IMG/VR virus record: IMGVR_UViG_3300027792_000010
Origin: a virus
DNA: 64,000 nt
Reading direction: 5' to 3' (one strand)
Numbering within the stretch: position 1 is the stretch's first letter; each line of letters opens with the position of its first letter. A program made the translations under genes and the position numbers. The notes below the pieces were generated by a model that saw only the letters and a program-made list of their open reading frames with translations, did not search any database and was not told the DNA's origin. This document shows, piece after piece, positions 6,085-36,899 of this stretch.

Positions 6085-6156
6085 CTGGAGTGCAGGGATT
6101 TGAACCCCGATACTTAGATCCAAAATCTAAGATCCTAACCGTTGGATGACACCCCA
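6085..6156 (-). tRNA. tRNA-Gln(TTG)
   Basis: Acceptor TGGGGTG/CACTCCA, anticodon arm TTAGA-TTTTGGA-TCTAA, G73. Confidence 0.92.
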
Positions 6157-6207
6157 GTAAAGTTGATGGCGACTGCGCTCATGATTGGTATCGCCACCGC
6201 TGAAGAT

Positions 6208-6285
6208 TGGTCTAGATGGAGGGATTCGAACCCACGACCCTCGCGCCCCAAACGCGATGCTCTAGCCGGACTGAGCTACATCTAG
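6208..6285 (-). tRNA. tRNA-Pro(TGG)
   Basis: Acceptor CTAGATG/CATCTAG, anticodon arm TCGCG-TTTGGGG-CGCGA, A73, CCA. Confidence 0.95.
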
Positions 6286-6296
6286 AGTTATTAAGG

Positions 6297-6380
6297 CTGA
6301 CACGGAGGGACTTGAACCCCCAAGCTCCTTACGGAGCGAACGGTTAACAGCCGTTTTCCTTGCCATTAGGATACGTGTCA
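6297..6380 (-). tRNA. tRNA-Asn(GTT) with a long variable arm
   Basis: Acceptor TGACACG/CGTGTCA (U1-A72), G73, anticodon arm AACGG-CTGTTAA-CCGTT, extra arm GCTCC-GTAA-GGAGC. Confidence 0.9.
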
Positions 6381-6430
6381 GTAAAAACAAATGTTCTGCA
6401 TTCATCTGTTATATTTAAAAGAACAAAAAT

Positions 6431-6470
6431 AAAAAAGCCTCAGCGATCCTTGGTTCGGTTCGCTGAGGCT
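6431..6470 (-). terminator. Attenuator 1 intrinsic terminator (3:4 hairpin)
   Basis: GCCTCAGCGA...TCGCTGAGGC followed by TTTTTTATTTTT; its 5' arm can instead pair with GGTTTCGCTGAAGG (6512-6525) inside the leader ORF. Confidence 0.9.
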
Positions 6471-6494
6471 CTTTTCAGAGATTTTGGCTGTTAC

Positions 6495-6581
6495 CTAATG
6501 CAAAACAACCACCTTCAGCGAAACCTTATTAGGTTGCTGTGGATTAGGGTTCGGGTTATTTTGATTAGTAACAATAAACAT
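6495..6581 (-). CDS. Attenuator leader peptide 1, MFIVTNQNNPNPNPQQPNKVSLKVVVLH (Asn/Gln/Pro sensor)
   Basis: SD AAAGGA, ATG, 13 consecutive N/Q/P codons, TAG stop 25 nt before the terminator; upstream of tRNA-Asn, Pro, Gln. Confidence 0.9.
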   Translation of the reverse strand: MFIVTNQNNPNPNPQQPNKVSLKVVVLH

Positions 6582-6610
6582 AATTTTTAATCCTTTTAAT
6601 GCTTAACTTT

Positions 6611-6639
6611 AATATACCACTTTGGTATAAGAAGATCAA
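6611..6639 (-). promoter_or_regulatory. Promoter of tRNA operon 1
   Basis: TTGATC-17 bp (ends AAAGTGG)-TATATT; same type at 29615-29643 and 36871-36899. Confidence 0.88.
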
Positions 6640-6653
6640 GAAAAATTATAGTT

Positions 6654-7046
6654 TTATTTTAATTCTTGATATTTAACAATTTTCATTTCCTCTTTTGAGA
6701 CCACTAAAGATTTTTCCAGTAGAAGATTTGACTTCTGTATAACTGTTCCTGCTCCAAGCCAAGGAGCTATTAATTTATATTTCGTTCCTTTTGAGTTCTC
6801 AAAAACAGCCATACAAAAAATTGAATCTATACTAAATCTTATTTCGTCTCTATATATAAACTTCATTACACTACATGTATCATTTACTGGTATGCTGCTT
6901 TTTAATCTCCATCCGTTATTATCTAACTGAGTATTATTCTTATATACCATCATTTGAGGGGTACTATATTGTTTTTCAAAACCCTTATTATTACCACAAG
7001 ACGCTATTACAATAATAGTTGATAATATTAATGCTTTGTATTTCAT
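6654..7046 (-). CDS. Putative lipoprotein
   Basis: Signal peptide with lipobox-like 'IASC'. Confidence 0.6.
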   Translation of the reverse strand: MKYKALILSTIIVIASCGNNKGFEKQYSTPQMMVYKNNTQLDNNGWRLKSSIPVNDTCSVMKFIYRDEIRFSIDSIFCMAVFENSKGTKYKLIAPWLGAGTVIQKSNLLLEKSLVVSKEEMKIVKYQELK

Positions 7047-7975
7047 ATGCCCATTTCCTTTACTTCTTTTTTACCATCTTCAGTAAATTTCTCTACATCT
7101 TTATCATATTTTTTTAGTAATTCTTCTAATTCTGAAACATGTATTTTTTCTTCATTAGCTATGTCCTGTAATACTTTTTTAACCTTACTGTCATCAGTTG
7201 AGTCTACAATTATCTCATACAGATGTATTGCATCCAACTCAGCAGCTATAGATTGTCTAATAACTCTTGTTATCTCTCTTGGATCTAGTTTATTTTCTGG
7301 AGTAAGCGTTGGGGCTATAGTCGAGAAATCCATAGCTTTCTTTTCAATACCCTTTTCCATCTTATCTAATCTATCATAGTAATCAGGTAACTCTTTTAGA
7401 TGCGCTTTTGCTATAACTTTATAAAAATTTTCTTTCGTGATTGGCATCTTTATCTCCAACTTTTTAAAGAACTTACAAAAGAGTTCATATAAATCCTTAT
7501 GCTCTTTTTCTACATTTATCCCTTCTTGAATTTGAGAAGATGCTGAAAGATACATATGTGCTACCTTAAGAGCCATACCAGACTTTTTAATTGAGTTTTT
7601 GTCGGCTGTGTCCATTTGTTGTACCACCTTTCTTGCCCAGGTAAACCCAGGGTCACCTCCCCAAATTAACCAAGCTACGTAACCCCTATCTTTCCAGGGC
7701 TCGTCTTTATGTTTAGGGTCTATGCTTTTGTTCTTTTCGTGTCTTGAAAAGAAACTGAACATTCTTTTGATAGTATCTGGGGAAATCTTATCACGGTTCT
7801 TTAAATTTACAGCTCGTTGAACACCGGAACCTATGCCTTCTTTAGCAGCTTGTTGGGTATTTAGCCCCCCTTTACCTCCAGCTTTTTGACGGTATTCTAA
7901 TCCCTTGTTTGCTGCAGAAGCAACTTCTTTAGGAGGGACAAAATCAATATGTTTGTACTTCTCAAGAATAGACAT
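7043..7975 (-). CDS. Multi-domain phage protein: N-terminal phage domain, DUF5661-like middle, C-terminal ferritin-like (rubrerythrin/encapsulin-cargo type) domain
   Basis: 'VPPKEVASAANKGL...VAWLIWGGDPG'; 'EGINVEKEH...IAKAHLKELPDYYDRL'; 'AIAAE-like ELDAIHLYE...IANEEKIH' ExxH di-iron pattern. Confidence 0.65.
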   Translation of the reverse strand: MSILEKYKHIDFVPPKEVASAANKGLEYRQKAGGKGGLNTQQAAKEGIGSGVQRAVNLKNRDKISPDTIKRMFSFFSRHEKNKSIDPKHKDEPWKDRGYVAWLIWGGDPGFTWARKVVQQMDTADKNSIKKSGMALKVAHMYLSASSQIQEGINVEKEHKDLYELFCKFFKKLEIKMPITKENFYKVIAKAHLKELPDYYDRLDKMEKGIEKKAMDFSTIAPTLTPENKLDPREITRVIRQSIAAELDAIHLYEIIVDSTDDSKVKKVLQDIANEEKIHVSELEELLKKYDKDVEKFTEDGKKEVKEMGI

Positions 7976-8030
7976 AGAAACTCCCTTAATACTTTTAGTA
8001 AGTATTAAGGGATTCTATATTGAAAGATTA

Positions 8031-8318
8031 TTAAGAGGAAGGTTCTATCGCTGTTTTTAGTTTGAGAGGAGGGCCGGAGAGAATGGAGTCTACAACCTCA
8101 CAACGTTCCCTATGCCCAGTAAAAGCTATGGTTTTTCCTTTTGTATGAGCCTTCAAAGTAATATCCATAGCTTTTTCGGGGGTACATCTTGTGGCCTTCA
8201 TTACTTGAGCTACAACAGCATCGAATGGGTTTACATCGTCATTGAACAAAATGACATTATAAGGCTTACCAAGGATATTAGCAACTTTACTTAAATCTTT
8301 GTTTACTGTTAATTCCAT
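8031..8318 (-). CDS. clpS: ClpS-like N-end-rule adaptor
   Basis: 'YNVILFNDDVNPFDAVVAQV...AMDITLKAHTKGK...G..ERCE' ClpS signature. Confidence 0.88.
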   Translation of the reverse strand: MELTVNKDLSKVANILGKPYNVILFNDDVNPFDAVVAQVMKATRCTPEKAMDITLKAHTKGKTIAFTGHRERCEVVDSILSGPPLKLKTAIEPSS

Positions 8319-8482
8319 AACTACTAAACCTTGTCCATCGTTACTTCTGGTTTATCCTCTGGAATTTTTTCAGACTTCTTTTTCTCTGCCTCTTCCATCT
8401 TTCTCACAAGGAAATTATAGATCACTTTTATAGTGATAACTACAGCAACAACAATTGTAATCTTTTTCCACATACTTACTCC

Positions 8483-9424
8483 TTATTCAAAGTGAATACG
8501 TTTGATTGCATCTACAAACATACTTGATACATCGATTGTTTGAATGAACTCCTCTGAGTAATCTATTCCTGGTCTCCAAACTGTATTTGTAACATGTACT
8601 TTATTTATTGGGGATCTCTTCATATCCCATATAGCATCCTTAGTTAGTATTCCGTGTATAGCACAAGCATGAATTTCTATCGCTCCATTTGACTTAAGAA
8701 CTTCTGCAGCCTTTATCATGGACTTACCCGAGGCTATCTCGTCATCAATAATAATGCATATTCTACCTTTAACATTTCCAACTAGACTTGTAATTTGAGG
8801 ATTCTCCGTATCATCAACACGAATTTTACTCATGTATGCTACGGGAAGCTGACATAGCTCAGCGTACTCTGTAACCATTTTAGAGCTACCAGAGTCCAGG
8901 GCAACTAAAGTGGTCTTGTTGAAGGATACCTCTTTCTTAAGGTATTGATAGATTATCTCTTTCGGTACAAGATGATCTGTAGGAATCCTAAAAAATCCCT
9001 GAGTTTGCGGAGAATGTAAATTCATGAACATTGCACGGCTGGCACCTGCGGTTTGAAGAAGATCCGCCAGAAGACGAGCAGTGATAGATGTTCTGGACTC
9101 CCCCCGTTTGTCTGACCTGCAGTACGGATAATAAGGAAGAACGACTGTGATACGTCCGGCGCTTGCGTGCTTGAGAGTATCGATCATTATGAGCAGTTCC
9201 ATTATTCGTTCATTCTGATTAGGATAATTAGGCTGTATGATAAAGATATCATCACCGCGAACAGACTCTTCCACCTTAAATTTGATGTTGTCATTAGAAA
9301 ATATCAAAGAAGTTGTTTTCAATCTGGGAAGATAACTTTCTGTCACCAAATATTCTAACAATTTCGATTCAATCATATTATATAAGGGAAGTTGCTCACA
9401 TCCTGTCATGATGCGAAGTCTCAT
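8483..9424 (-). CDS. prs: Ribose-phosphate pyrophosphokinase family protein
   Basis: 'IKFKVEESVRGDDIFII', 'PYYPYCRSDK', 'LHSPQTQGFF', PRTase loop 'IIIDDEIASGKS'. Confidence 0.93.
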   Translation of the reverse strand: MRLRIMTGCEQLPLYNMIESKLLEYLVTESYLPRLKTTSLIFSNDNIKFKVEESVRGDDIFIIQPNYPNQNERIMELLIMIDTLKHASAGRITVVLPYYPYCRSDKRGESRTSITARLLADLLQTAGASRAMFMNLHSPQTQGFFRIPTDHLVPKEIIYQYLKKEVSFNKTTLVALDSGSSKMVTEYAELCQLPVAYMSKIRVDDTENPQITSLVGNVKGRICIIIDDEIASGKSMIKAAEVLKSNGAIEIHACAIHGILTKDAIWDMKRSPINKVHVTNTVWRPGIDYSEEFIQTIDVSSMFVDAIKRIHFE

Positions 9425-9438
9425 GCCTACCTCCTATT

Positions 9439-10410
9439 TCAATTAACTCTAAAAAGGTTGTCTCCTGATCCAGGCGAAACTTCACATCCTGAATTTTTTT
9501 CACTTGCACTATTAGACCGATTATTTGTTACATCAGTAAGCTTTTCTTCTGGTTTATTAGATTCAGTTTTCTTTTCATCATCTACATGGTTCTGTATACT
9601 GATCAGAATATCTTCTACTTCATAGACTATATTTTGAAACTTTGGAGTTCTTTTCAATTCCGCACTTCTATCACAGGGCAAATCAACGGTCATCTTTTGT
9701 ACAATCTTTCCTGGATTTGCCCTCATAAAGAATATTTCATCCCCGAGGTATACAGCCTCTGAAATGTCGTGCGTAACAAATATAATCGTTGTGCGTATCT
9801 TTGACCAAATTTCACATAACAAATCTTGCATTTTTAAGCGAGTATTCACATCTAGAGCGCCGAAAGGTTCATCCATCAGAAGTATCTCAGGTGCTGAAAC
9901 TAAGCTACGGGCAATAGCTACACGCTGAAGCTGACCACCAGACAATGTGGGGTATTTAGCATATTTACTTTCATGTCCCTCCAGACCTACTAACTTAATC
10001 ATCTCCATAGCTTTTTCATGACGTTCTTTTTTTGGTACCCCTTTGAACTTAAGCCCAAGGGCTACGTTGTCGAGCACACTAAGCCAGGGAAATGAACTAT
10101 ACTGCTGGAACACCATTCCTACTTTGATGCTCTTTTCGATAGTTTTTCCACTAATGAGCACTTCTCCCGACGTAGGTTTTTGCAATCCTGATATATATCT
10201 GAGTAGAGTAGATTTACCAGATCCTGATACGCCTAATATAACTACGAACTTGCCTTTTTCGGAGTTATCCTCTATAAGCAGGTTGAGATCTTGTATAATG
10301 CTGGCACTGCTACCATTATACCTCTGAGATATATCCTTAAGTTCTATAATATCGTGGGCATTTGTATTCGTAAAAATAACATTATCATTGTACATACTAT
10401 ACCTCTTCAT
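9439..10410 (-). CDS. ABC transporter ATP-binding subunit (TauB/NitT/SsuB type)
   Basis: Walker A GVSGSGKS, signature LSGGQLQR, Walker B LLMDEPFGALD, 'FVTHDISEA'. Confidence 0.95.
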   Translation of the reverse strand: MKRYSMYNDNVIFTNTNAHDIIELKDISQRYNGSSASIIQDLNLLIEDNSEKGKFVVILGVSGSGKSTLLRYISGLQKPTSGEVLISGKTIEKSIKVGMVFQQYSSFPWLSVLDNVALGLKFKGVPKKERHEKAMEMIKLVGLEGHESKYAKYPTLSGGQLQRVAIARSLVSAPEILLMDEPFGALDVNTRLKMQDLLCEIWSKIRTTIIFVTHDISEAVYLGDEIFFMRANPGKIVQKMTVDLPCDRSAELKRTPKFQNIVYEVEDILISIQNHVDDEKKTESNKPEEKLTDVTNNRSNSASEKNSGCEVSPGSGDNLFRVN

Positions 10411-10648
10411 CGGTAGGGTATAAAAGTGTAAAAGTTTTAGCAGTTTTTTTAGCAGTTTTTAAAGCTATAAGAATTTTATCTACAGACTCTATTACTTGAA
10501 TTGTATCTCTATTTGTTAATATTGTCGTATACCCATGCCCCTCTGATATGTAGTCTATTTTATCTATAGGTATAATAACCCTTAATCCTTTATCTATTTT
10601 ACCTGTAATAAGTCTTGAGCAAATAAGAAAACCAGAATTTTTACCCAC
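10397..10648 (-). CDS. Small hypothetical protein (weak FlbD-like resemblance)
   Basis: 'IPIDKIDYI...TTILTNRDTIQVIESVDKIL' pattern; recalled resemblance only. Confidence 0.4.
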   Translation of the reverse strand: MGKNSGFLICSRLITGKIDKGLRVIIPIDKIDYISEGHGYTTILTNRDTIQVIESVDKILIALKTAKKTAKTFTLLYPTDEEV

Positions 10649-10659
10649 TTAGTCACCTC

Positions 10660-11469
10660 TCAAATATATTTGTAAGGGAATAGTTTTTTGTCCAACCACA
10701 TAAAGATCCTATCCTGCACAAACCCAATCAAAACTATCATGATCAGGACAGCAAACACTTTGTCGATACGACTCTGACGGGCAGCTGTATAGGCTAATGC
10801 CCCGATACCACCTGACCTATTTACTAGTTCAGCTACAATGATGTATGTCCAGGAAATCGCTACAAGCACTCTAATGTCATCTGATATTTTGGCGAATACT
10901 GAGGGAAAGAAAACACTGAAAATCATCTGCCACCTATTAGCTCCGAGAGTTTTAGCAGTTTGTTGATGAACAACTTCTACTTCATCTATCCTTTGAACAA
11001 CTACTGGAAGCATATAGACTATGATACCGAAAGCCAAGAACTGAACCTTCATATTAGTATCGATACCGAACCATGCAATAAAAACACCAACCACAGCGGT
11101 AAGCGGTATGAATCTGGAAGCACTGATATATCTACTGAAGAGACTACGGAAGAAAGGAAACAATCCGATAGGAAAACCTATCAGGACGGCTATTATTACT
11201 GCTTCTACATATCCTAAGATATTAAGTTTGATAGAAAACAGAGTATTTGTGAATATACTATCTTTAATATACAATTCTTTGAAAGAAGTTATTACCATCC
11301 ACGGCGAAGGAAGCAAGGACTCAGGTATGAGCTTGAGGGATGTTATGATACCCCATATACCCAACAGAACTACAAATCCTGCTATTTCGATAATAAGCAT
11401 TGTTTTCTTGGGGAGTGCTCCACGAATTTCAAACAGATTATCAAGATCTTTCATATAAGTATTCTCCAA
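10660..11469 (-). CDS. ABC transporter permease (TauC/SsuC type)
   Basis: Multiple TM segments, 'LLPSPWMV', EAA-loop 'AKTLGANRWQMIFSV', 'SWTYIIVAELV'. Confidence 0.93.
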   Translation of the reverse strand: MENTYMKDLDNLFEIRGALPKKTMLIIEIAGFVVLLGIWGIITSLKLIPESLLPSPWMVITSFKELYIKDSIFTNTLFSIKLNILGYVEAVIIAVLIGFPIGLFPFFRSLFSRYISASRFIPLTAVVGVFIAWFGIDTNMKVQFLAFGIIVYMLPVVVQRIDEVEVVHQQTAKTLGANRWQMIFSVFFPSVFAKISDDIRVLVAISWTYIIVAELVNRSGGIGALAYTAARQSRIDKVFAVLIMIVLIGFVQDRIFMWLDKKLFPYKYI

Positions 11470-11473
11470 GGGC

Positions 11474-11671
11474 TCAAATTTTGTCTGATAAAGTAATTAC
11501 AGTTACCTCTGAACCTTTTTCTACCTCAGAAGAAACAGCCTGTCCATAATTATAATATTGAGTACCATACTTAGTAATTAAATTTCTCTTATGTTCTATT
11601 GTAGCAGAAGCATAAGATTCTTTTATAACTTCTTCCCCATCTATTGTGATTGAAACTTGTACTACTGACAT
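11474..11671 (-). CDS. Hypothetical protein
   Basis: ORF track, in the operon, with SD. Confidence 0.5.
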   Translation of the reverse strand: MSVVQVSITIDGEEVIKESYASATIEHKRNLITKYGTQYYNYGQAVSSEVEKGSEVTVITLSDKI

Positions 11672-11758
11672 TATTTACCTCAATTTTTTATAAGATATAC
11701 GGTGAGCTAAAGAAAAGCTCCCCAAGCAAAAGTGCATGGGGAGTTTCCAAGGTGGGAC

Positions 11759-27165: not shown

Positions 27166-27306
27166 AAAAAATCCTCCCTTATTAGGAAGTAATATACTAT
27201 TTGGGAATTAAAATTGAAAGTAGGATAAAGATACAGGTCTCTGTAGTTTATATAATCTGCTATGTTTGCTGCAGCTCCGCCTACATAAAGGTATTACAGA
27301 AATAAA

Positions 27307-27380
27307 TACGCTAGGCAAGATTCGAACTTGCGTTGTAGCTTTCGTAGAGCTATGCCTTTAATCCAATAGGCTACTAGCGC
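27307..27380 (-). tRNA. tRNA-Arg(ACG)
   Basis: Acceptor GCGCTAG/CTAGCGT, anticodon arm TAGCT-CTACGAA-AGCTA. Confidence 0.92.
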
Positions 27381-27386
27381 ATATTT

Positions 27387-27875
27387 TCAATACCCTAATA
27401 ATAGTAAAGCTTTATCTATGTCTAAATCAGAAAGCCCTATTAAGCTATCTGTTAGTACTAAATGATCTTTTAAATCTCCCAAATCATGATCCTCATCATC
27501 TATTATTATGTACTTACCCTTAAACTTGTTAGACCTTAACCAACTTTTTATTTCATCACTTCTATTATGGCTTATACGATTAGTATTTTTTAGTCTTACA
27601 CCGCAAGGGATCATTCCTATTATTTTATCTATGGGTACTGTTATAGCATCTACTGCAAAAGGATTGACACCATGTATAGCTCCATTTATCCTAAATATAT
27701 CTTTTAGCTTTTCCAATCCTGTTACATCTGACATCCAGCTACTTGTTATTACTAAGTTAGCATCTGTTATATCAATAAGTCTATTTAGTCTTTTTATAGT
27801 ATCTAAATCAAAATATAAATAGTCAGTATTTGCGGTACACAGCACCCCATCAATGTCTAAAAAGATAATATTCAT
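27387..27875 (-). CDS. HAD-family phosphatase (RNA-repair HAD_SAK_2-like)
   Basis: 'IIFLDIDGVL', 'LVITSSW', 'RSDEIKSWL', 'YIIIDD'; start moved to MNII because the longer ORF overlaps tRNA-Val. Confidence 0.82.
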   Translation of the reverse strand: MNIIFLDIDGVLCTANTDYLYFDLDTIKRLNRLIDITDANLVITSSWMSDVTGLEKLKDIFRINGAIHGVNPFAVDAITVPIDKIIGMIPCGVRLKNTNRISHNRSDEIKSWLRSNKFKGKYIIIDDEDHDLGDLKDHLVLTDSLIGLSDLDIDKALLLLGY

Positions 27876-27895
27876 GTTATCACTTTCTATTTTAA

Positions 27896-27968
27896 TAGGC
27901 TTATTCGGATTCGAACTGAAGACCTCCTGCACGTCGAGCAGGCGCTCTTCCAATTGAGCTATAAGCCC
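27896..27968 (-). tRNA. tRNA-Val(GAC), atypical (C33; one T-stem mismatch)
   Basis: Acceptor GGGCTTA/TAAGCCT, anticodon arm CCTGC-TCGACGT-GCAGG. Confidence 0.82.
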
Positions 27969-28244
27969 AACTAATCTATTTTTTCATGTCTAGATTGTTT
28001 TACTATTTTATAATGACTCCTCGAAGGGTCATAGCTACTTCTAGCCTCTCCGGGCTTACCGACCTCAGCAGCGTAAGACCGTTCAAGTCTATCATACCCA
28101 CGTTTAACAATCTCATCAATTTTCTGGCTACTCATAAATACCTCTACTAAGATTAAAGGTTACTGTTTACTCTTCATATTGTCCTATAAGGTCTTTTGGA
28201 AGGTTTAGTTATCTATAACATCAAAATTCAGTATACTTAAAGAA

Positions 28245-28820
28245 CTAAAGCCCACTATTATTACCCCATAAATAATAACTAAGCATATCGGCGCTATTTA
28301 AAATAACAGATAGTGTAGTCATACTAGTACCTTTGCTATACACTGAGGATAAATCAAAACTATACCCTCCATGATGGTGATCTATAGCCTCAATATGTTT
28401 ATCTGTAAGCTGTATCCCATTCCTAAAGCACTCTGCTACTGCCTTACTATTCTCCGCGTAGGGAGGAATATCTTTTCTATACTCGAATAGTTGATTACTC
28501 TTAGGCTCTTTAAGAAGTTCGTATCGCCATAGTTTATCCAGGTCATGCACAAAGGACACTAAAACTACATCGTCTATGTTAAAATCCTTTATTTCTTCAT
28601 AAGAGGAAGCTGTCTTGTATAAAGAGATGCCTAATTCCATTACTTGTGCTGTATGGTCACCCCACCCAGCTCTCCACCAGTGGTGATACTTTCTGGCTGA
28701 AGGATAGAAATCTATCTTATCCTTCAGGGTATAGTACGCACCTATCAAACTATCAAGGAGCGTACTACTCGTAATGTTATCTTCAAAGATCTTAGGTATG
28801 TCTGTTCCGCGTGGAATCAT
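28245..28820 (-). CDS. HD-domain phosphohydrolase
   Basis: 'YHH...DHTAQV', 'FVHDLDK', 'AIDHHHG', 'ADMLS'. Confidence 0.82.
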   Translation of the reverse strand: MIPRGTDIPKIFEDNITSSTLLDSLIGAYYTLKDKIDFYPSARKYHHWWRAGWGDHTAQVMELGISLYKTASSYEEIKDFNIDDVVLVSFVHDLDKLWRYELLKEPKSNQLFEYRKDIPPYAENSKAVAECFRNGIQLTDKHIEAIDHHHGGYSFDLSSVYSKGTSMTTLSVILNSADMLSYYLWGNNSGL

Positions 28821-28847
28821 TGTTATCCCTACCTTTCAAAAATGTAA

Positions 28848-28920
28848 TAGACGTTGAGGGATTCGAACCCCCGACATCCGCGATGTAAACACGGCACTCT
28901 ACCAACTGAGTTAAACGTCC
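28848..28920 (-). tRNA. tRNA-Val(TAC)
   Basis: Acceptor GGACGTT/AACGTCT, anticodon arm CCGTG-TTTACAT-CGCGG. Confidence 0.93.
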
Positions 28921-29120
28921 ATCAGTTTCTTATTTATTTCTGCGATTTCTTCCTCTTTTTTTCTTTTCTCCCTAACACACTCTCTTCTGGTATGAGTAAG
29001 CCATTCCGGGGCATCTGTAAAAGAATCATCCCAGGTATACCCCTCAATAGAATGATTCAGACTTAGTATTTCATCATATAGCTCACTCTTACGCTCTAAT
29101 AGCTGCTTTCTTTTTTTCAT
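28911..29120 (-). CDS. Small hypothetical protein
   Basis: ORF track; stop overlaps the tRNA-Val 5' end by 10 nt. Confidence 0.45.
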   Translation of the reverse strand: MKKRKQLLERKSELYDEILSLNHSIEGYTWDDSFTDAPEWLTHTRRECVREKRKKEEEIAEINKKLMDV

Positions 29121-29144
29121 TACAATTTTTCCTTAATTATATTG

Positions 29145-29216
29145 TGGGACCGGAGAGATTCGAACTCTCGGTACCCGTATTAAAAGTACGGGGCCTTACC
29201 ACTTGGCTACGATCCC
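29145..29216 (-). tRNA. tRNA-Lys(TTT)
   Basis: Acceptor GGGATCG/CGGTCCC, anticodon arm CCGTA-CTTTTAA-TACGG. Confidence 0.93.
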
Positions 29217-29331
29217 AGAATTTAATCCTGAGTTCGTATAATGGTAACTACAAACTCAGGCTATCGTTTATACCTTTTTAGACGTTTCATAAACAAAACT
29301 ACTTTCATATATAGTTAAATTTTTAAATTAA

Positions 29332-29404
29332 TACCCCTGGAAGGACTCGAACCTTCAACTCCTTGCTTAAGAGGCAAGTACTCTAACCATTGAGTTACAG
29401 AGGC
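29332..29404 (-). tRNA. tRNA-Lys(CTT)
   Basis: Acceptor GCCTCTG/CAGGGGT, anticodon arm CTTGC-CTCTTAA-GCAAG. Confidence 0.93.
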
Positions 29405-29455
29405 GATTTTAGACGTTTCTTATTTTTACTACTTTTCCACACGACCCCATAAAAC

Positions 29456-29486
29456 AAAAAAGCCCCAGAGAAAAATCTCCTGGGGC
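29456..29486 (-). terminator. Attenuator 2 intrinsic terminator
   Basis: GCCCCAGGAGA-TTTT-TCTCTGGGGC then TTTTTTGTTTT; 5' arm alternatively pairs with CCTGGGGTTCTTTTATCT (29517-29534) in the leader. Confidence 0.9.
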
Positions 29487-29514
29487 CTTTATCTAAAGCT
29501 ATTTAGCTTCATGT

Positions 29515-29595
29515 TCAGATAAAAGAACCCCAGGGGCTACCTTTATGGCGCTTTGCTACGACTTTTACCTTTACCACAAACAAACTCATAAACAT
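29515..29595 (-). CDS. Attenuator leader peptide 2, MFMSLFVVKVKVVAKRHKGSPWGSFI (Val/Lys/Arg sensor)
   Basis: SD AAGGAG; codons GTG GTA AAG GTA AAA GTC GTA GCA AAG CGC CAT AAA; upstream of tRNA-Lys x2, Val x2, Arg(ACG). Confidence 0.9.
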   Translation of the reverse strand: MFMSLFVVKVKVVAKRHKGSPWGSFI

Positions 29596-29614
29596 AATAT
29601 ACTCCTTGTATCAT

Positions 29615-29643
29615 AATATACCACTTTGCCGGGTAAAGATCAA
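29615..29643 (-). promoter_or_regulatory. Promoter of tRNA operon 2
   Basis: TTGATC-17 bp (ends AAAGTGG)-TATATT. Confidence 0.88.
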
Positions 29644-30146: not shown

Positions 30147-30758
30147 TTATCCTATAAATACGTAGAACTCATCTTCTGATCGTACCAAAGCCTCTTTCTG
30201 GGACATAGAATAATAACTTCCACGATCTACAAGGATTATCCCAGGTTTTACGCTCCCGCTATCTTCGGAATTGAAGATGTTACTTAGAAGTCTATCCTTA
30301 AGGGGGGAAGAAGCTACCTCACTATCGATTATCGTCTTTATATCGGAAAATAATGCACTACTATTGCACAGAATCCTTGCATTCTGATAATACTTCGCAA
30401 GGTGCAAAAGAAGGCTTGTATTACATGTCCTTCTCGGGAGAGATAAAGAAATACAGCAGAATTCTTTAATATAAGATAGTTTTCCCTTATAACTCTCAAA
30501 CTCTGCCCTACGAGGGCTTGTCAATACTGCCCCGATAGTGGTAGTTATGAGGTCAAAAGCAGATTCATGCATCCCATCTAAGATACTGGATGAGATCCAT
30601 GAGTCAGAGTCATCCTCATTTATTTTATCCATAGTCTTCTCTAAGATACCTATAGTACCCTTGATTAAATTTCTTGCAGCGGTCAAACCTGACTTTGTTA
30701 AATCTGGTATTATTTCGTCTGTAATTTTATTAAGTATCTTATCAGAATTAACTCCCAT
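30147..30758 (-). CDS. Hypothetical protein, possibly a degenerate P-loop
   Basis: 'SLPRRTCNTSLL' resembles PRRxGKT lacking the GK. Confidence 0.45.
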   Translation of the reverse strand: MGVNSDKILNKITDEIIPDLTKSGLTAARNLIKGTIGILEKTMDKINEDDSDSWISSSILDGMHESAFDLITTTIGAVLTSPRRAEFESYKGKLSYIKEFCCISLSLPRRTCNTSLLLHLAKYYQNARILCNSSALFSDIKTIIDSEVASSPLKDRLLSNIFNSEDSGSVKPGIILVDRGSYYSMSQKEALVRSEDEFYVFIG

Positions 30759-30763
30759 ACCGA

Positions 30764-31297
30764 TTACTCCTTGTTATAAAATTTTTCCCATAGTTCTTTT
30801 ATGGCTATGATATGTAGACTTATAGCTTGAGGGGTCATACCTAACGCCTCTGCTATCTCTACACCACTCATACCTTTTGCCGTAAGATCTAATATCTTCT
30901 TTCTTTTACCTGAGACACCACCTGACCTTTGAATTTTATTATAAAAGACTTTCCAATCTATCTCTATATCGGATAGCTCAGAGATAAGATCTTCCTCCCC
31001 GTGAAGAATTTCATCATACTCTATTTTAGTTATGTTATAACCACTCTTATCGCTAGTTTCTCTCTTATGCTCATTCTGCATGAATCTAAACATACAAGTA
31101 GATATGTAGGTTTTAAAGGTTCCCTGTTTCTTGTCAAACCTCGTAAGGACATCATTCTCCAGCATATGAATAATAAGTTTACTAATAAAGTCTTCAATGA
31201 AATCTTGGTTTTTGATGCCAGTCTTCCATATTAACATCTTTCTAAGATCGCCTACGTTCTCTCGGAAGAAAATTTCGTAGTTAGTTGTTTCTTTCAT
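30764..31297 (-). CDS. Sigma-70 family (ECF-like) RNA polymerase sigma factor
   Basis: Region 2-like 'EDFISK...RFDKKQGTFKTYI', region 4 HTH 'GMSGVEIAEALGMTPQAISLHI'. Confidence 0.8.
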   Translation of the reverse strand: MKETTNYEIFFRENVGDLRKMLIWKTGIKNQDFIEDFISKLIIHMLENDVLTRFDKKQGTFKTYISTCMFRFMQNEHKRETSDKSGYNITKIEYDEILHGEEDLISELSDIEIDWKVFYNKIQRSGGVSGKRKKILDLTAKGMSGVEIAEALGMTPQAISLHIIAIKELWEKFYNKE

Positions 31298-31344
31298 TAA
31301 GGTACTCCGAGAGAATATATAATTAGTATCTTCACTATATTAGT

Positions 31345-31995
31345 TTAGAACTTATTTTTTTTCATAGGTGCTGATAACTTATACTCATCTATAAATCTAT
31401 CATATACCATATTGTATATCTGACCATTCTTCGGGTTACGAAGAAGTTCAAACTCTTCTACAGTCCAATGAAACCACCTCATCAAAAATACTCTAATAGC
31501 AATCCCATGAGATACTATAATTACATTATTTGGAAAGTCTCTTTTCTCAAAGTCTCTATGTAAGGTTCCAAAGAATGAAGAGATACGATCAAATACGTCT
31601 GCTCCTGATTCTCCATTTTTTATTCTATAGAAAAAGGTACCATATGAGTCTCTCTCCTTATCTATTTCTCTTAATTCGCTAATATTTCCATAATTACCCC
31701 ATCCCTGTTCTCTTAATCTAGGGTCTTCGTGATATTTTGAAATAATAACTTTTTTATCTTCAAGAGTATCTCTTATAATTTTTGAAGTCTGCTGCGCTCT
31801 GAGCCAGGGAGATATATAAAAAGCAACAGAGATACCGTGAAGGTCAGAATAAAGTTTTTCTGCGGCAGCCTGAGCTTGCGTTATCCCTTTTTCAGTGAGG
31901 GGGACTTTCCAATCAGGTGTGGTCTCATAGATATTTTTATCTACATTGCCTACTGATTCACCATGACGTACTAAAAAAATGTTATAAGGCTTCAT
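31345..31995 (-). CDS. Histidine phosphatase (phosphoglycerate mutase family)
   Basis: 'FLVRHGESVGN', 'SPWLRAQQT', 'DPRLREQ', 'GESGADV', 'IVSHG'. Confidence 0.92.
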   Translation of the reverse strand: MKPYNIFLVRHGESVGNVDKNIYETTPDWKVPLTEKGITQAQAAAEKLYSDLHGISVAFYISPWLRAQQTSKIIRDTLEDKKVIISKYHEDPRLREQGWGNYGNISELREIDKERDSYGTFFYRIKNGESGADVFDRISSFFGTLHRDFEKRDFPNNVIIVSHGIAIRVFLMRWFHWTVEEFELLRNPKNGQIYNMVYDRFIDEYKLSAPMKKNKF

Positions 31996-32015
31996 TTATA
32001 TTACCTATGAAAAAA

Positions 32016-32094
32016 TGGTGGGCCTTGAGGGACTTGAACCCCGCTACTTACTGATTATGAGTCAGCTACTCTAAACCAACTGAGTTAAAGGCCC
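32016..32094 (-). tRNA. tRNA with CAT anticodon, probably Ile2 (lysidine)
   Basis: Acceptor GGGCCTT/AAGGCCC (C4,C5), arm GCTGA-CTCATAA-TCAGT, A73, CCA; one extra base in the T stem. Confidence 0.85.
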
Positions 32095-32103
32095 GTTATC
32101 TAA

Positions 32104-32616
32104 TTAATAAGCTTCACTTTGTGGCACTAATTTTGGTTCACCGTTCTTCATACTTAGATATATAATTCTATATTCCTTGTGTAAAGTAAAAGCCCACCAT
32201 TTATATTGCCTCTTCAACCTTGTAGACTTATAGTAAACAATACGTGTGTCATTCATATCTTTATCTAAATAAGTCTGATAATTCTCAAAAATTAAGGACT
32301 TAAGATACTTACCTGTGGGATCATTAACATAAAACCTATAATAAGTATCATTTACTTTTATTCCTTGGTAAACAGTAATACTGTCATCTTGTAGTTGAAA
32401 AGGAATAACTTTTATCATAGCTACAGGTTCCATCTCGTAGCGATGTGAAGAAACACCTAATGTCGAAGCTAAGAGGGCACCAATAATACTCCCTGCAATA
32501 CTCCCAAAAATGGCACCAACCCAAATGTCATACCTCTGATGGCTATTATTAAACACCAAAACAATATTAGCCCCAAAAATAGCACCAGCAATAAGTCCTA
32601 GTAGTAAGGTGAGCAT
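32104..32616 (-). CDS. Membrane protein (Gly-rich TM hairpin)
   Basis: Two hydrophobic GxxxG-rich segments at the N-terminus. Confidence 0.6.
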   Translation of the reverse strand: MLTLLLGLIAGAIFGANIVLVFNNSHQRYDIWVGAIFGSIAGSIIGALLASTLGVSSHRYEMEPVAMIKVIPFQLQDDSITVYQGIKVNDTYYRFYVNDPTGKYLKSLIFENYQTYLDKDMNDTRIVYYKSTRLKRQYKWWAFTLHKEYRIIYLSMKNGEPKLVPQSEAY

Positions 32617-32888
32617 TTCAACCTATCTCCTTAAAGTCATCAGGAAGAGGTGATGGTAGAGTAGCCTTATATTCTTCCATAGCTTCTGTCATAAGGTTTT
32701 TCAGCTCAGTACCAAAAGTGACTCTATCGTATGACTTTGATTTCTCATCTAAGAAATCAATAAGTTCAAGAATCTTGCTCATATCTACCTCATTGTGTTT
32801 TTACAATATACTTTTTGTTAATAGGCTTTTCAAATTAACAAATTAAATACTTTACAATTTCGACTCTATAGTACCTCATTCTTTAATA

Positions 32889-33377
32889 TTACTTCTGTAT
32901 TTTAACGAGTACTATGGGTTTGGTATTCTTTAGTCTTTTGCACCCTTTGAAGTCTTCTGTCTCTAAACATTTATCACACAAGGTTAGTAAATAGCCTGTA
33001 CCCTTATCTACTGCCCTACCCCCTGGATTACTGCAAGCCTCACAAACTGTGAGGGATCTGCTTTCATATTTTGAAACTAACTCAGTGATTTTATTTTTGT
33101 ATGATGGATTTTTTCCCTGCAGTGTTATATAGTACCTCAACCCAGCAAGCTTCTGCTTTATCTGCTCGACTCTTATTACCTTCTCTGTATCAATAGCCGA
33201 TAATTCTTCAGATAGCTTTTCTATTAGCCCCAACCAACCCTTCCAACATTCAATATGATAACTAGTAATAGGAGGGTCTTCGCTCCTACCAGGGGGAAGA
33301 AAAGTATACTCGAAGAGCGCAGGGTACTTGTTGAAGAGTTCTTTTTGTTTCTTTGCAGAAATACTATAGTTTTTCAT
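32889..33377 (-). CDS. Hypothetical phage protein
   Basis: 'GWLGLIEKL...QIKQKLAGLRYY...TVCEACSNPG' common phage family; behind promoter 33413. Confidence 0.65.
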   Translation of the reverse strand: MKNYSISAKKQKELFNKYPALFEYTFLPPGRSEDPPITSYHIECWKGWLGLIEKLSEELSAIDTEKVIRVEQIKQKLAGLRYYITLQGKNPSYKNKITELVSKYESRSLTVCEACSNPGGRAVDKGTGYLLTLCDKCLETEDFKGCKRLKNTKPIVLVKIQK

Positions 33378-33466
33378 CCAAAGCTCCTGTATTTAGATCT
33401 CAAGTCTTAAATAATATACTATTTGGAGGGGAGAAATTAAAAGAAAAGTAAAAATACACCGTTCCT

Positions 33467-34582
33467 TTAAACTTGGATAAATCCAACTTCATAAGGTTTG
33501 TAACGGGCACCGTACAGCCCCGTAAGAAATCGAGTCAATATGTTCACAGCTCCGATCACGTCGGCGTTGCCTATGTGACCACATTTCAGGCACCGGAACA
33601 CTTGTCCTACTCGATTCCCCCTATTGACATGACCACAGCTTGGGCATGTTTGGCTGGTATAATAAGGAGCTACAGTGCGAAAACTAACACGGTTAGTCTC
33701 GCAAGCTTGCTCAAGCCTTTTTAACCAATACCTATACGCCCAAGTGCCGATAGAACGCCGCATATTTTTACTCAAGCGGCGTTTGAGTTTACTTTTGAAA
33801 TTCATGTTCTTAAGAGCTTCAACCACGACTAAATCGATGTGTTTGAACTCTTTGACAATTTCTTGTACAACTTCATCTATTCTTTGTTTAAAAGCTCTAC
33901 GAGCCTGTTTTTGCCCATTAGAGCCATGAGTGCAGCGTTTGATACGTTCAATACAGGCTTCTGTATCTAAACCAAATTGCTGGCCATTATTAATAGAAGC
34001 AAGTGCTTTTATCCCTGTGTCAATACCGATAGCATTTACACCTTCTTTTTTCTTGCCAGCATCTATTTCGAAAGAGAACTGAACATAGTTATCTGTGAGG
34101 ATGTAGGAATTAAGGCGTTTTCCCTGAAGAGCCAATTTATTATAATGTTTATGAAACTTTATAGGTATATCAAGGATTGTATCTTCACCAATAGACTGGA
34201 GATGGAGCCAAGCATCAAATTCTTTAGAGTCCTCTTTTTCCTGAAGATCAGCTATAGTACAGGAAACATAAGCTCTTTTGCCTTTATGAATGGGCATAGA
34301 GATTTTCCAAGGCTTATCTTTCCATCGTTCTTTTACGGCAGTAATCATATCTATAGCTTCTCTGGCTGCGACCTTTCGGAGCCTAGCGGTGAGCCACGTA
34401 CCATGAGGGATGTCAACAATTTCTTTTAAGAGTTCTGATTTAGAAGGAGTTCCATTCTTCCAGAAGTAATTGATAAAAGTGTTACAGACCCGACCATACT
34501 CAGCGAGGACCTTACGAAGCTCGGAGAGTTTGGAGGCTGTAGCAAATTTAAGACTACATTTAGAAGAACGAATCAGTTTCAT
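33467..34582 (-). mobile_element. tnpB: TnpB RNA-guided nuclease (solo, no TnpA)
   Basis: RuvC-I 'IGIDTG', RuvC-II 'VVEAL', Zn ribbon 'TSQTCPSCG...FRCLKCG', RuvC-III 'NADVIGAVNI'. Confidence 0.93.
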
Positions 34583-34584
34583 AA

Positions 34585-34896
34585 TTAGTCTTTATCTTTA
34601 AACTCAAATTGAATACAGGATACCTCTTCATCTTCAATAACAGGAAGGCCGTATATTTTCATGGACTCTCCTGCTTTTATAGAAATCGCTACAATATCTG
34701 GACAAAATAAAGAAAGCATATTTTTATATGTAGGAGATACTCTAAACCCAGTTAGAATCTTTTTCTGCTCATGAAAACTCTTTTTTACCTCTATCATTTT
34801 ATGCCCAAAATCACACCGTACCAAATTGGCCAAAACTTTAAATTCCGCGGTGCCTGGTAAATCTCTACCGATATTAGAACTCATAAATTCCAGCAT
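34585..34896 (-). CDS. Hypothetical protein
   Basis: ORF track, SD GGAGG. Confidence 0.5.
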   Translation of the reverse strand: MLEFMSSNIGRDLPGTAEFKVLANLVRCDFGHKMIEVKKSFHEQKKILTGFRVSPTYKNMLSLFCPDIVAISIKAGESMKIYGLPVIEDEEVSCIQFEFKDKD

Positions 34897-34983
34897 TGAC
34901 TACCTCCTGTTTTAATATTATTTGAGATTTCTTCTTTTTATTTTTGGCACTTCTACGCCAGTAAATTTTTGAAGAAAACGAAG

Positions 34984-35033
<50 letters not shown>

Positions 35034-35082
35034 ATATCCCCGACCAACTCATTCTCATAACTTTTAGGTAAAGTCTCTTCTA

Positions 35083-35283
35083 CTAATAAGTCAAAACAGT
35101 ACCATTTTCATTTAATGTATCATCTATCACTTTTTTATTATTCTCATATGTATTTTTTGGGCATATAACTAAATTTACTTTATTCTTAACTCTTATACCA
35201 GGTCTATCACCCTTTGGTATAACATATACTAGCATATTTCTATCTTCACTCAACGATAATAAAGCTTGGTGTTTTATGTTCAA
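35083..35283 (-). CDS. Hypothetical protein
   Basis: ORF track; ends with tandem TAG TAG. Confidence 0.5.
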   Translation of the reverse strand: MNIKHQALLSLSEDRNMLVYVIPKGDRPGIRVKNKVNLVICPKNTYENNKKVIDDTLNENGTVLTY

Positions 35284-35325
35284 TATCCGCCTCCTTTTTA
35301 GTGTGAGACGTATTAAAAGCTTATT

Positions 35326-35607
35326 CTATATTTCCACATCCTCTATCAAAGTAGCAAAACAAGGGGTACCATCTCCTACCCACGATCCTATTACGTTAAA
35401 TTCAAAATACTCCTCGGCTTCCTCAGAGGTCATCTTATCCCTCTCCATAAATATTTCTAAACATTTTTTTCTACTAAGGAGGATAAGAGGGGATTGTCCG
35501 AAACGTTCTACCATACCTATGATAGCATCATCTAAATCTGTAGGGTATAAAGCTTCATCATTAATATCACCCATATACTCTAAGAAATCTTTGATCTTAT
35601 TTTCCAT
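35326..35607 (-). CDS. Hypothetical phage protein
   Basis: 'LDDAIIG...MTSEEAEEYFEFNVIGSWVGDGTP' widespread phage family. Confidence 0.7.
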   Translation of the reverse strand: MENKIKDFLEYMGDINDEALYPTDLDDAIIGMVERFGQSPLILLSRKKCLEIFMERDKMTSEEAEEYFEFNVIGSWVGDGTPCFATLIEDVEI

Positions 35608-35629
35608 AATGACCCCCTAATAAAAAAAA

Positions 35630-35732
35630 TACGCCCGGAGTGACTCGAACACTCGACCCATAGCTTCTCTGACAGTCCTACTAACGACTGCCCGAGAAGG
35701 CTATTGCTCTAATCCAACTGAGCTACGGACGC
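35630..35732 (-). tRNA. tRNA-Arg(TCT) with a 28-nt insertion in the anticodon loop
   Basis: Acceptor GCGTCCG/CGGGCGT, normal D and T arms; deleting 35667-35694 restores ATAGC-CTTCTAA-GCTAT. Confidence 0.85.
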
Positions 35733-35738
35733 ATAATT

Positions 35739-35813
35739 TGGAGCGAGGTGCGGGAGTCAAACCCGCCAGATTCACCTTGGAAGGGTGACGCATAATCGAT
35801 CTGCCTACCCCGC
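35739..35813 (-). tRNA. tRNA-Gly(TCC)
   Basis: Acceptor GCGGGGT/ACCTCGC, U73, CCA, arm TCACC-CTTCCAA-GGTGA; T loop TTTGACT. Confidence 0.9.
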
Positions 35814-35853
35814 ATAATTATAATATACTATTTGGTATTCTAACTTTAAAGTA

Positions 35854-35936
35854 TGGAGCCTGGAGAGGGAGTTTCACCCTCTGGTCGCTTTATCCCCGAG
35901 CGAGTGGGGACCCTTAGCTTCAAGAGCTATCCCGGC
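35854..35936 (-). ncRNA. tRNA-like RNA with CCA end and a pseudoknot-capable hairpin replacing the anticodon arm
   Basis: Acceptor GCCGGGA/TCCAGGC + T + CCA; T-like arm GAGGG-TGAAACT-CCCTC; D-like TAGCT/AGCTA; TCCCC-ACTCGCTC-GGGGA whose loop TCGCT can pair with downstream AGCGA. Confidence 0.55.
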
Positions 35937-36209
35937 ATAACTTTCCATCAAAAACTCATTAAACTTTCTCTCCTGCATAGTAAGCTTATCTTTTTTACTC
36001 CAGTTTGCTCTGCGGGGATTTTTACACATAATACAGGAGCAAAGTTTGGTGGTATCCCTTCTTATTTGAGCTTCCTTCTCTATGAAGTCTGCTCTTTCTT
36101 TTTCTGAGGTTAGCCACTTAGCAGTACTGCCGTAATAACCTAATGCACGTTTTTTCCCCAACTTCTTACCGATGAGGAAGCGTTCACGCTTATCTTTTGG
36201 ATGTGACAT
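35874..36209 (-). CDS. Small basic Cys-containing protein; 3' end overlaps the tRNA-like element
   Basis: 'RRDTTKLCSCIMCKNPRR'; ORF track. Confidence 0.6.
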   Translation of the reverse strand: MSHPKDKRERFLIGKKLGKKRALGYYGSTAKWLTSEKERADFIEKEAQIRRDTTKLCSCIMCKNPRRANWSKKDKLTMQERKFNEFLMESYAGIALEAKGPHSLGDKATRG

Positions 36210-36357
36210 AATGTATCCTTTCCTGTATTGCGCCCCTCACGAGCGCATGCTTATGGATTTCATTATGCCCTCCTTTAAAATAAGTTTAATTCGAACCTGG
36301 TAAAGAAGTTCGAAAGCATACCTCTAAAGTACAATTTTAAGTATAAATAAATTACTA

Positions 36358-36430
36358 TGCGGGTGAGGAGAATCGAACTCCTGTCACTACATTGGCAATG
36401 TAGCATACTAAACCGCTGTACTACACCCGC
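36358..36430 (-). tRNA. tRNA-Gly(GCC), A73
   Basis: Acceptor GCGGGTG/CACCCGC, arm CTACA-TTGCCAA-TGTAG. Confidence 0.9.
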
Positions 36431-36444
36431 TTAAAATTACTTTA

Positions 36445-36521
36445 TGGTGGGCTGTGAGGGACTTGAACCCCCGATCTTCTCGTTATGAGCGAGCTTCTTT
36501 AACCAACTAAGATAACAGCCC
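36445..36521 (-). tRNA. tRNA with CAT anticodon (Ile2 favoured, elongator Met possible)
   Basis: Acceptor GGGCTGT/ACAGCCC, loop CTCATAA, C4-G69, U12-A23, A73, CCA; the upstream leader has two ATA codons and no internal ATG. Confidence 0.85.
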
Positions 36522-36534
36522 TTAATAAAAGATA

Positions 36535-36606
36535 TACCCCTGCCCGGAGTCGAACCGGGACGCTGACAATGAAAGTGTCAGGACCTAACCGTTAGTCTAC
36601 AGGGGC
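36535..36606 (-). tRNA. tRNA-Glu(TTC)
   Basis: Acceptor GCCCCTG/CAGGGGT, arm TGACA-CTTTCAT-TGTCA. Confidence 0.93.
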
Positions 36607-36628
36607 GTAATTCAATATTCATAATAGA

Positions 36629-36640
36629 TGTCAAAGATCA
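36629..36640 (-). promoter_or_regulatory. boxA-like antitermination sequence
   Basis: TGATCTTTGACA between attenuator 3 and the first tRNA; resembles rRNA-operon boxA. Weaker TGTTCTTTTAAA in operon 1 (about 6414-6425). Confidence 0.55.
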
Positions 36641-36648
36641 TATAAAAC

Positions 36649-36686
36649 AAAAAACCCCTGCCTGGATTTTATCCTGACAGGGGTTT
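36649..36686 (-). terminator. Attenuator 3 intrinsic terminator
   Basis: CCCCTGTC-A-GGAT-AAA-ATCC-A-GGCAGGGG then TTTTTTGTTTT; 5' arm alternatively pairs with CCTGACGGGG (36712-36721) spanning the leader stop. Confidence 0.9.
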
Positions 36687-36716
36687 GAAGTCTTTGTAAT
36701 GATATTATCATCCCCG

Positions 36717-36785
36717 TCAGGTTGGCTTTAGCCTTCCTTCTCCTTCTCTACCCTCTATACCTATGGTAGCTGGGATGTAAAACAT
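36717..36785 (-). CDS. Attenuator leader peptide 3, MFYIPATIGIEGREGEGRLKPT (Ile/Gly/Glu/Arg sensor)
   Basis: SD AAAGGA; 11 consecutive codons ATA GGT ATA GAG GGT AGA GAA GGA GAA GGA AGG; upstream of tRNA-Glu, CAT, Gly x2, Arg(TCT). Confidence 0.9.
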   Translation of the reverse strand: MFYIPATIGIEGREGEGRLKPT

Positions 36786-36870
36786 GATACTTTCCTTTTT
36801 TATTTGGATAGGTTGCCCGATGGTACCATCCATTTACAATTTATTAACAAATATTATAACTTTCAATATT

Positions 36871-36899
36871 AATATACCATTTTGAGATATAAAGATCAA
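36871..36899 (-). promoter_or_regulatory. Promoter of tRNA operon 3
   Basis: TTGATC-17 bp (ends AAAATGG)-TATATT. Confidence 0.88.

Follow-up and report, generated by a model that had tools for sequence, protein, structure and literature searches.

The stretch analysed here (hereafter the window, 64,000 nucleotides (nt) of IMG/VR record IMGVR_UViG_3300027792_000010) derives from a ~202-kb contig of a large uncultured phage with 37% G+C, and carries genes for ribonucleotide reductase, nicotinamide adenine dinucleotide synthesis enzymes, a CCA-adding enzyme and TnpB-like proteins together with 17 transfer RNA (tRNA) genes. All of these tRNA genes, as well as nearly all genes from ~45 kb to the left end, lie on the minus strand. 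Three units on this strand display a common order of promoter, Shine-Dalgarno sequence, short open reading frame (ORF, hereafter the leader), intrinsic terminator and tRNA genes. An original prediction made from the letters alone had described them as leader-peptide attenuators matched to the tRNA operons that they control, and the promoters, Shine-Dalgarno sequences, 22-28-codon ORFs, terminators and tRNA genes were all recovered at the three loci that it named. The features of the units are as follows.

6611-6639, minus strand: unit 1 promoter, TTGATC, 17-nt spacer with TGG extended -10, TATATT.
6495-6581, minus strand: unit 1 leader ORF, 28 codons plus TAG, with an AAGGA Shine-Dalgarno sequence at 6591-6595.
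6528-6566, minus strand: unit 1 sensor run, codons 6-18, 13 consecutive Asn/Gln/Pro codons.
6513-6522, minus strand: unit 1 antiterminator 5' strand, predicted by folding to pair with the terminator 5' arm when the ribosomal A-site is at or before codon 17.
6425-6471, minus strand: unit 1 intrinsic terminator, stem of 12 bp or more followed by a U-tract.
6084-6380, minus strand: unit 1 tRNA-Asn GUU (6295-6380), Pro UGG (6208-6285) and Gln UUG (6084-6156).
2377-4499, minus strand: unit 1 distal, co-directional tRNAs, Pro UGG (4423-4499), suppressor CUA (2537-2609) and Gln CUG (2377-2452).
29615-29643, minus strand: unit 2 promoter.
29515-29595, minus strand: unit 2 leader ORF, 26 codons plus TGA, with an AAGGAG Shine-Dalgarno sequence at 29602-29607.
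29542-29577, minus strand: unit 2 sensor run, codons 7-18, Val/Lys/Arg.
29479-29534, minus strand: unit 2 putative antiterminator hairpin, whose 5' strand is formed by the last ORF codons and the stop and whose 3' strand is the terminator 5' arm.
29452-29487, minus strand: unit 2 intrinsic terminator.
27306-29404, minus strand: unit 2 tRNA-Lys CUU, Lys UUU, Val UAC, Val GAC and Arg ACG, with small ORFs between them.
36871-36899, minus strand: unit 3 promoter.
36805-36832, minus strand: unit 3 hairpin in the 5' untranslated region, kept in the related contig L029 (~707-735) through two double (compensatory) changes.
36717-36785, minus strand: unit 3 leader ORF, 22 codons plus TGA, with an AGGA Shine-Dalgarno sequence at ~36793-36796.
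36729-36764, minus strand: unit 3 sensor run, codons 8-19, comprising AUA, GGU, GAG, GAA, GGA and CUA plus AGA and AGG.
36712-36721, minus strand: unit 3 antiterminator 5' strand, across the stop codon, predicted by folding to pair with the terminator 5' arm when the A-site is at or before codon 19.
36649-36683, minus strand: unit 3 intrinsic terminator.
35629-36606, minus strand: unit 3 tRNA-Glu UUC, a CAU tRNA (probable AUA decoder), Gly GCC, Gly UCC and Leu UAG (28-nt intron).
32016-32094, minus strand: second CAU tRNA of unit 3, of the elongator type, farther along in the same direction.

The promoter pattern, TTGATC and TATATT separated by 17 nt with the TGG extended -10, occurs at exactly three sites in the 64 kb, namely those of the three units, for 0.14 expected by chance (0.00 for a stricter form of the pattern). 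Each leader ORF begins with ATG and is preceded at 7-9 nt by an AGGA-type Shine-Dalgarno sequence; behind it stand a G+C-rich hairpin and its U-tract, from which 42-50 nt lead to the first tRNA gene. The tRNA genes were called with ARAGORN, introns being allowed, and with Rfam, which revealed directly after tRNA-Gly UCC of unit 3 the intron-containing tRNA-Leu UAG gene that had been overlooked in the original prediction. Neither CAU tRNA of the window is initiator-like, and the one preceding Gly GCC is probably an AUA decoder, judging from the sequence of L029, which has a tRNA-Ile UAU gene at the same position and in which a tRNA-Glu CUC gene is added. An in-frame upstream ATG (36833) was considered as the start of leader 3 and rejected, since it has no Shine-Dalgarno sequence and the differences from the relative preserve the hairpin and not a peptide.

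The correspondence between the leaders and the tRNA genes that follow them is close. Using standard wobble rules to convert anticodons into readable codons, the tRNAs of the same operon read 13/13, 10/12 and 10/12 of the sensor codons of units 1, 2 and 3, respectively, and those of the other two operons read none of them in any unit. As the sensor runs were picked by eye, all ORFs of 15-40 codons starting with ATG on both strands (n = 554) were scored as well, each by the 12-codon stretch that best matched one of the three tRNA sets; the leaders of units 1-3 came out as the top three, with 12, 10 and 10 of 12 codons, each with its own operon, the next best ORF reaching 8. Furthermore, no tRNA of unit 2, nor any of unit 3 up to and including the Leu gene, lacks a cognate codon in its own leader, and in places the match extends to the codon itself. 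Thus, leader 3 uses AUA for Ile with a CAU tRNA downstream (UAU in the relative), GGU and GGA ahead of Gly GCC and Gly UCC, and CUA ahead of Leu UAG, and leader 2 uses CGC, which makes up only 6% of the Arg codons of the phage, with tRNA-Arg ACG downstream. Of the amino acid sets originally proposed, that of unit 3 needs adjusting: Leu is to be added, and the AGA and AGG codons for Arg have no cognate tRNA gene in the window, where a search for a tRNA-Arg UCU gene found none. As a negative control, the tRNA array of contig L010 contained no codon-matched small ORF.

A fourth unit was found on contig L054, which is identical to the window and runs 8.7 kb past its left end, the unit lying 8 kb beyond the window. 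Behind the same promoter come a 25-codon leader with many Ser, Ile, Phe, Asp and Thr codons, a terminator and a tRNA-Phe gene. When this fourth leader is included, the pairing of each leader with its own operon reaches a score of 50, the runner-up among the 24 permutations reaching 35. With only tRNA-Phe visible, the leader was used to predict that the operon would also contain Ser, Thr, Ile and Asp tRNAs and, less confidently, Cys and Met. In a relative, contig L057, whose neighbouring protein is 92% identical over the stretch compared, a homologue of leader 4 is followed by tRNA-Phe, Asp, CAU, Ile GAU and Ser GCU. By the sequence of this homologous operon, the identities foretold from leader 4 appear largely borne out, the predicted Thr and Cys tRNAs being absent from it. 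The agreement goes down to isoacceptors: none of the five Ile codons of leader 4 is AUA, which has a genome share of 52% (P=0.026), and the Ile tRNA of the L057 operon is GAU; likewise, five of its six Ser codons are AGY (P=0.033), and the Ser tRNA is GCU. In a fifth unit, likewise on L057, tRNA-Cys comes after a leader in which Thr, Ser, Leu, Cys, His, Ala, Trp and Tyr codons abound, and the five leaders jointly sample all 20 amino acids.

The putative switch was examined with a fold model in which the RNA extends up to the terminator loop, the 5' arm being out and the 3' arm not yet, and in which the footprint of a ribosome, assumed to span -15 to +13 nt around the A-site, is masked codon by codon. 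As had been anticipated in the original prediction, each unit has an upstream segment able to sequester the terminator 5' arm. This pairing is seen in the model with the A-site at or before codon 17 in unit 1, 17-18 in unit 2, 19 in unit 3 and 23-24 in unit 4, and is lost in all four once the modelled ribosome passes the boundary codon. The codon runs stop at codons 18, 18, 19 and 24, respectively, and it follows from this match of run ends with antiterminator boundaries that the cognate-codon part is where a stalled ribosome would allow readthrough. The antiterminator strand takes in the stop codon in units 2 and 3, and unit 2 switches already at equilibrium in full-length folds. The antiterminator and terminator pairings are thus predicted to be mutually exclusive, with the 5' strand of the former covered by a ribosome finishing the ORF. 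Moreover, only 16 nt in L029 and ~6 nt in L057 separate the U-tract from the first tRNA gene; such short gaps leave no space for a separate promoter, so that transcription of the tRNA genes there needs readthrough of the terminator.

Comparison with relatives indicates that the leaders have been kept together with their reading frames. Homologues of leader 2 were found in L012 and L013, and homologues of leader 3 in L029 and L030. From the ribosome-binding site to the terminator, the leaders are 87-90% identical to those of relatives, for 71-73% in the flanking protein genes. Among the tRNA genes, identity to the counterparts is 61-63% for Lys UUU, Glu UUC and Gly GCC and ~60-72% for most of those compared, with Lys CUU at 98.6%. 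As the tRNA genes have diverged more than the leaders, most of them have turned over, their identities still matching the leader. The homologue of leader 2 differs at seven residues; three of these lie inside the sensor run, where each change is to Val or Arg. The expectation set out at the start, that homologous leaders track the identity of the downstream tRNAs, thus holds in the relatives, and it extends to leaders of unrelated sequence in a cultured phage.

This phage is Tunturi 5, a jumbo phage (PP885688.1) that gave the best isolate match of the CCA-adding enzyme (42% identity) and whose genome has 58% G+C. With the same scoring, a 41-kb stretch of Tunturi 5 with 39 tRNA genes revealed three small ORFs that each stand ahead of a terminator and a block of tRNA genes. 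A leader rich in Leu, Cys, Ser and Tyr precedes Leu/Cys/Tyr/Ser tRNAs, another rich in Gln, His, Thr, Phe, Ala, Pro, Gly and Asn precedes Asn/Gln/Gly/Thr/Pro/His/Ala/Phe tRNAs, and a third, gp308, rich in Asp, Arg, Lys, Val, Trp, Glu and Met, precedes Trp/Asp/Met/Lys/Val/Arg/Glu tRNAs. Among 427 small ORFs, the first two leaders hold the top two ranks, and in both the antiterminator boundary coincides with the end of the codon run. None of these leaders is related in sequence to those of the window. The gp308 product, a hypothetical protein of 49 residues (L053:2811-2960), is most likely the leader peptide of a tRNA operon and not a protein functioning in its own right. The paper describing Tunturi 5 reports 43 tRNAs and mentions neither leaders nor attenuation (PMC11924767).

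Taken together, these data make it probable that the units are ribosome-mediated (leader-peptide) transcription attenuators gating tRNA operons, leader translation and stalling-controlled readthrough being what we infer from the arrangement and the fold models. Attenuation of the multivalent thr/ilv type, acting on tRNA genes, would be the simplest mechanism to account for all of the observations. In the scheme that we propose, a strong sigma-70-type promoter would start a transcript whose first element is the short ORF, the middle of which is made up of 12-13 codons cognate to the downstream tRNAs. Slow decoding of any codon of the run would cause the ribosome to linger and leave free the segment 3' of the run, which could then pair with the emerging terminator 5' arm and let RNA polymerase read through into the tRNA genes. 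On fast decoding, the ribosome would reach the end of the ORF and cover or unwind this segment, the terminator would form and the tRNA genes would stay untranscribed. Accumulation of the operon's own tRNAs would shut the operon again. Since the products are the molecules sensed, each unit would constitute a negative-feedback homeostat, responding, like an OR gate, to any of several tRNA species and matching supply to the codon demand of the phage. Control of supply by demand is the role that we favour, because the sensor codons follow the preferred codons of the phage itself, AUA and AGA accounting for 52% of its Ile and 46% of its Arg codons.

Several observations weigh against this scheme. 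In units 1 and 3, the full-length equilibrium folds always show the terminator, whatever the position of the ribosome, so that the switch rests there on a kinetic, co-transcriptional argument and on the assumed footprint; furthermore, in the fold model of unit 1, most of the antiterminator strand stays accessible when the ribosome sits at the stop codon. The relatives are close, and stem covariation is sparse. As to the codons, 4 of the 37 sensor codons have no cognate tRNA gene in the window, namely GCA and CAU in leader 2 besides the AGA and AGG of leader 3 mentioned above. The tail of leader 1 (6498-6527, minus strand) contains seven Lys/Val codons matching operon 2; this tail may reflect cross-talk between units or merely a constraint on RNA structure. 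Finally, leader C of Tunturi 5 ranks only seventh of the 427 small ORFs and its fold is noisy. With regard to the tail of leader 1, the fold model indicates in addition that a ribosome stalled in it would favour termination.

What the attenuators would chiefly respond to can be considered in several ways. Anticodon nucleases target particular tRNA classes, among which are Lys UUU, Glu UUC, Gln UUG and also Asn and Arg ACG. In one reading, a sharper form of the original prediction, the attenuators would mainly detect the cleavage of host tRNAs by such nucleases (PrrC, RloC, PARIS AriB, colicin-like) and induce replacements, which is a special case of the attenuator explanation with an identical mechanism. 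Each of the three operons does include one tRNA of a target class, these classes being known from the literature, and a codon-resolved sensor would react to the loss of a single isoacceptor. However, nothing in the window links the units to a defence system, the sampling of all 20 amino acids once units 4 and 5 are counted is a better fit to general supply control, and the sensor codons follow the phage preferences given above, as in demand matching. We therefore regard a role chiefly in anti-defence as unlikely.

A wider proposal, which we hold to be equally doubtful, is that the units perform a genome-wide, codon-resolved surveillance of the tRNA pool: they would detect the loss of any host isoacceptor, including by anticodon-nuclease cleavage, and replace exactly that set, freeing translation from the host tRNA pool. 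Its premises are that at least five leaders sample the 20 amino acids, that two of them end in UAG and that the phage has an amber-suppressor tRNA.

Less probable still is that the leaders sense how much charged tRNA the available amino acids permit and so tie tRNA transcription to the nutrition of the infected cell and not to the abundance of tRNA. The mechanism alone cannot separate a lack of tRNA from a lack of charging, and the geometry equals that of the leaders of amino acid operons. On the other hand, extra tRNA gives no relief of an amino acid shortage, so that the regulated genes fit poorly, and the partition of isoacceptors (AUA versus AUY, AGY versus UCN, CGC versus AGR) would be needless for sensing amino acids. 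That there is no ribosome-dependent switch, the terminators being leaky and constitutive or targeted by protein or RNA factors and serving only to adjust how much tRNA is transcribed, and the small ORFs being untranslated or coding for peptides of another role, would agree with the equilibrium folds of units 1 and 3 but is very improbable, as it leaves unexplained the high placing of the leaders in the sets of 554 and 427 small ORFs, the specificity for the own operon, the coincidence of run ends and antiterminator boundaries, the frames kept in relatives and the recurrence in unrelated sequence in Tunturi 5.

The attenuators that we propose resemble the leaders of enterobacterial amino acid operons (thrL, the ilvGMEDA leader, hisL, trpL and pheL) in having a promoter-proximal ORF with regulatory codons for a single amino acid or several, an intrinsic terminator and a mutually exclusive antiterminator, the position of the ribosome deciding between the two. 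They differ from them in that the enterobacterial leaders regulate biosynthetic enzymes, whereas the phage units precede tRNA genes and would sense their own product; in addition, the phage units are viral, match down to codons and isoacceptors and have no sequence similarity with these leaders. Indeed, the first genes downstream are tRNA genes and not the biosynthesis, transport or synthetase genes that form the usual scope of the attenuator family. The pheST attenuator, with its pheM leader, is likewise a leader-peptide attenuator of a translation component that responds to charged tRNA, but it governs one synthetase protein for a single amino acid from the host chromosome, in contrast to the blocks of tRNA genes considered here. 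T-box riboswitches also attenuate transcription of translation-related genes in reporting tRNA status; they bind uncharged tRNA directly through the specifier loop and the T-box bulge and require no translated ORF, unlike the phage units with their leader ORF. Neither the Rfam leader families (His, Thr, Trp, Leu, Phe) nor T-box gave a match, only tRNA reaching the gathering score and nothing relevant appearing at expectation values up to 1.

The closest published functional analogue that we found is the trn array (L-array) of Anabaena sp. PCC 7120, a supernumerary tRNA block that is silent until translation is impaired and that is controlled through promoter direct repeats bound by the repressor TrcR, with no mention of a leader ORF, attenuation or a terminator (PMC8421152, PMC10272220). 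It shares with the phage units the supply of tRNA on demand, but its response is global and not codon-specific. Among phages, the tRNA clusters of T4, T5 and jumbo phages have been published as simply expressed genes, in contrast to the window units, which leaders would gate; the tRNA sets of such large phages are biased to their own codon usage. The original prediction knew of no description of translational attenuation of tRNA genes, and in the full-text literature we likewise found no description of leader-peptide attenuation of such genes; most subscription journals lay outside this search, and an older report is possible.

Among isolated phages, megablast with the window returned no close relative, and scans of IMG/VR with single proteins yielded no relatives. 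For leader 1 no homologue came to light; contigs L033 and L034 are short and differ in gene order. With the CCA-adding enzyme as anchor, the homologues found in the large phages L025, L028, L055 and L056 had no tRNA genes nearby. A scan of IMG/VR for the promoter pattern gave chance matches only, apart from L052, a 131-kb IMG/VR phage contig in which TTGATC-17 (TGG)-TATATT lies directly ahead of single tRNA genes, with neither leader ORF nor terminator (L052:9338-9700).

A few further features of the tRNA regions deserve mention. TnpB / IS605 OrfB-like genes (Cas12f1-like_TNB) at 33467-34582 and 2-1201, both on the minus strand, are inserted amid the tRNA operons, and TnpB-like genes also adjoin tRNA regions in relatives. 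The tRNA-Asn GUU gene of unit 1 (6295-6380, minus strand) is 86 nt long and has a long variable arm, which is unusual for Asn. Two tRNA genes carry very short introns in the anticodon loop, of 28 nt in the Leu UAG gene of the window (35629-35733, minus strand) and of 27 nt in L012:4668-4772, which is far below the size of group I introns; the identity of the latter tRNA is ambiguous, Val UAC or Thr AGU. The amber-suppressor tRNA (anticodon CUA; 2537-2609, minus strand) lies near tRNA-Gln CUG in operon 1. The stop codon is TAG in leader 1 (6495-6497) and leader 4 (L054:10685-10687) and TGA in leaders 2 and 3. Recoding of TAG, considered on account of this suppressor tRNA, left no sign in the ORFs of the window, the late genes lying outside it.

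Phage tRNA genes are usually seen as passively expressed helpers. If the attenuation proposed here is correct, large phages would gauge decoding speed at the level of single codons and switch on each tRNA block as needed, and the principle known from trp and his attenuation would reach a new class of targets in which the product is the molecule sensed. This would account for the sorting of phage tRNA genes into particular blocks and would provide a sequence rule by which a leader of ~25 codons predicts the content of an operon, as well as compact natural parts reporting the availability of specific tRNAs. The presence of the same design in the cultured phage Tunturi 5, for which a laboratory host (Tunturiibacter psychrotolerans) exists, makes the idea directly testable.

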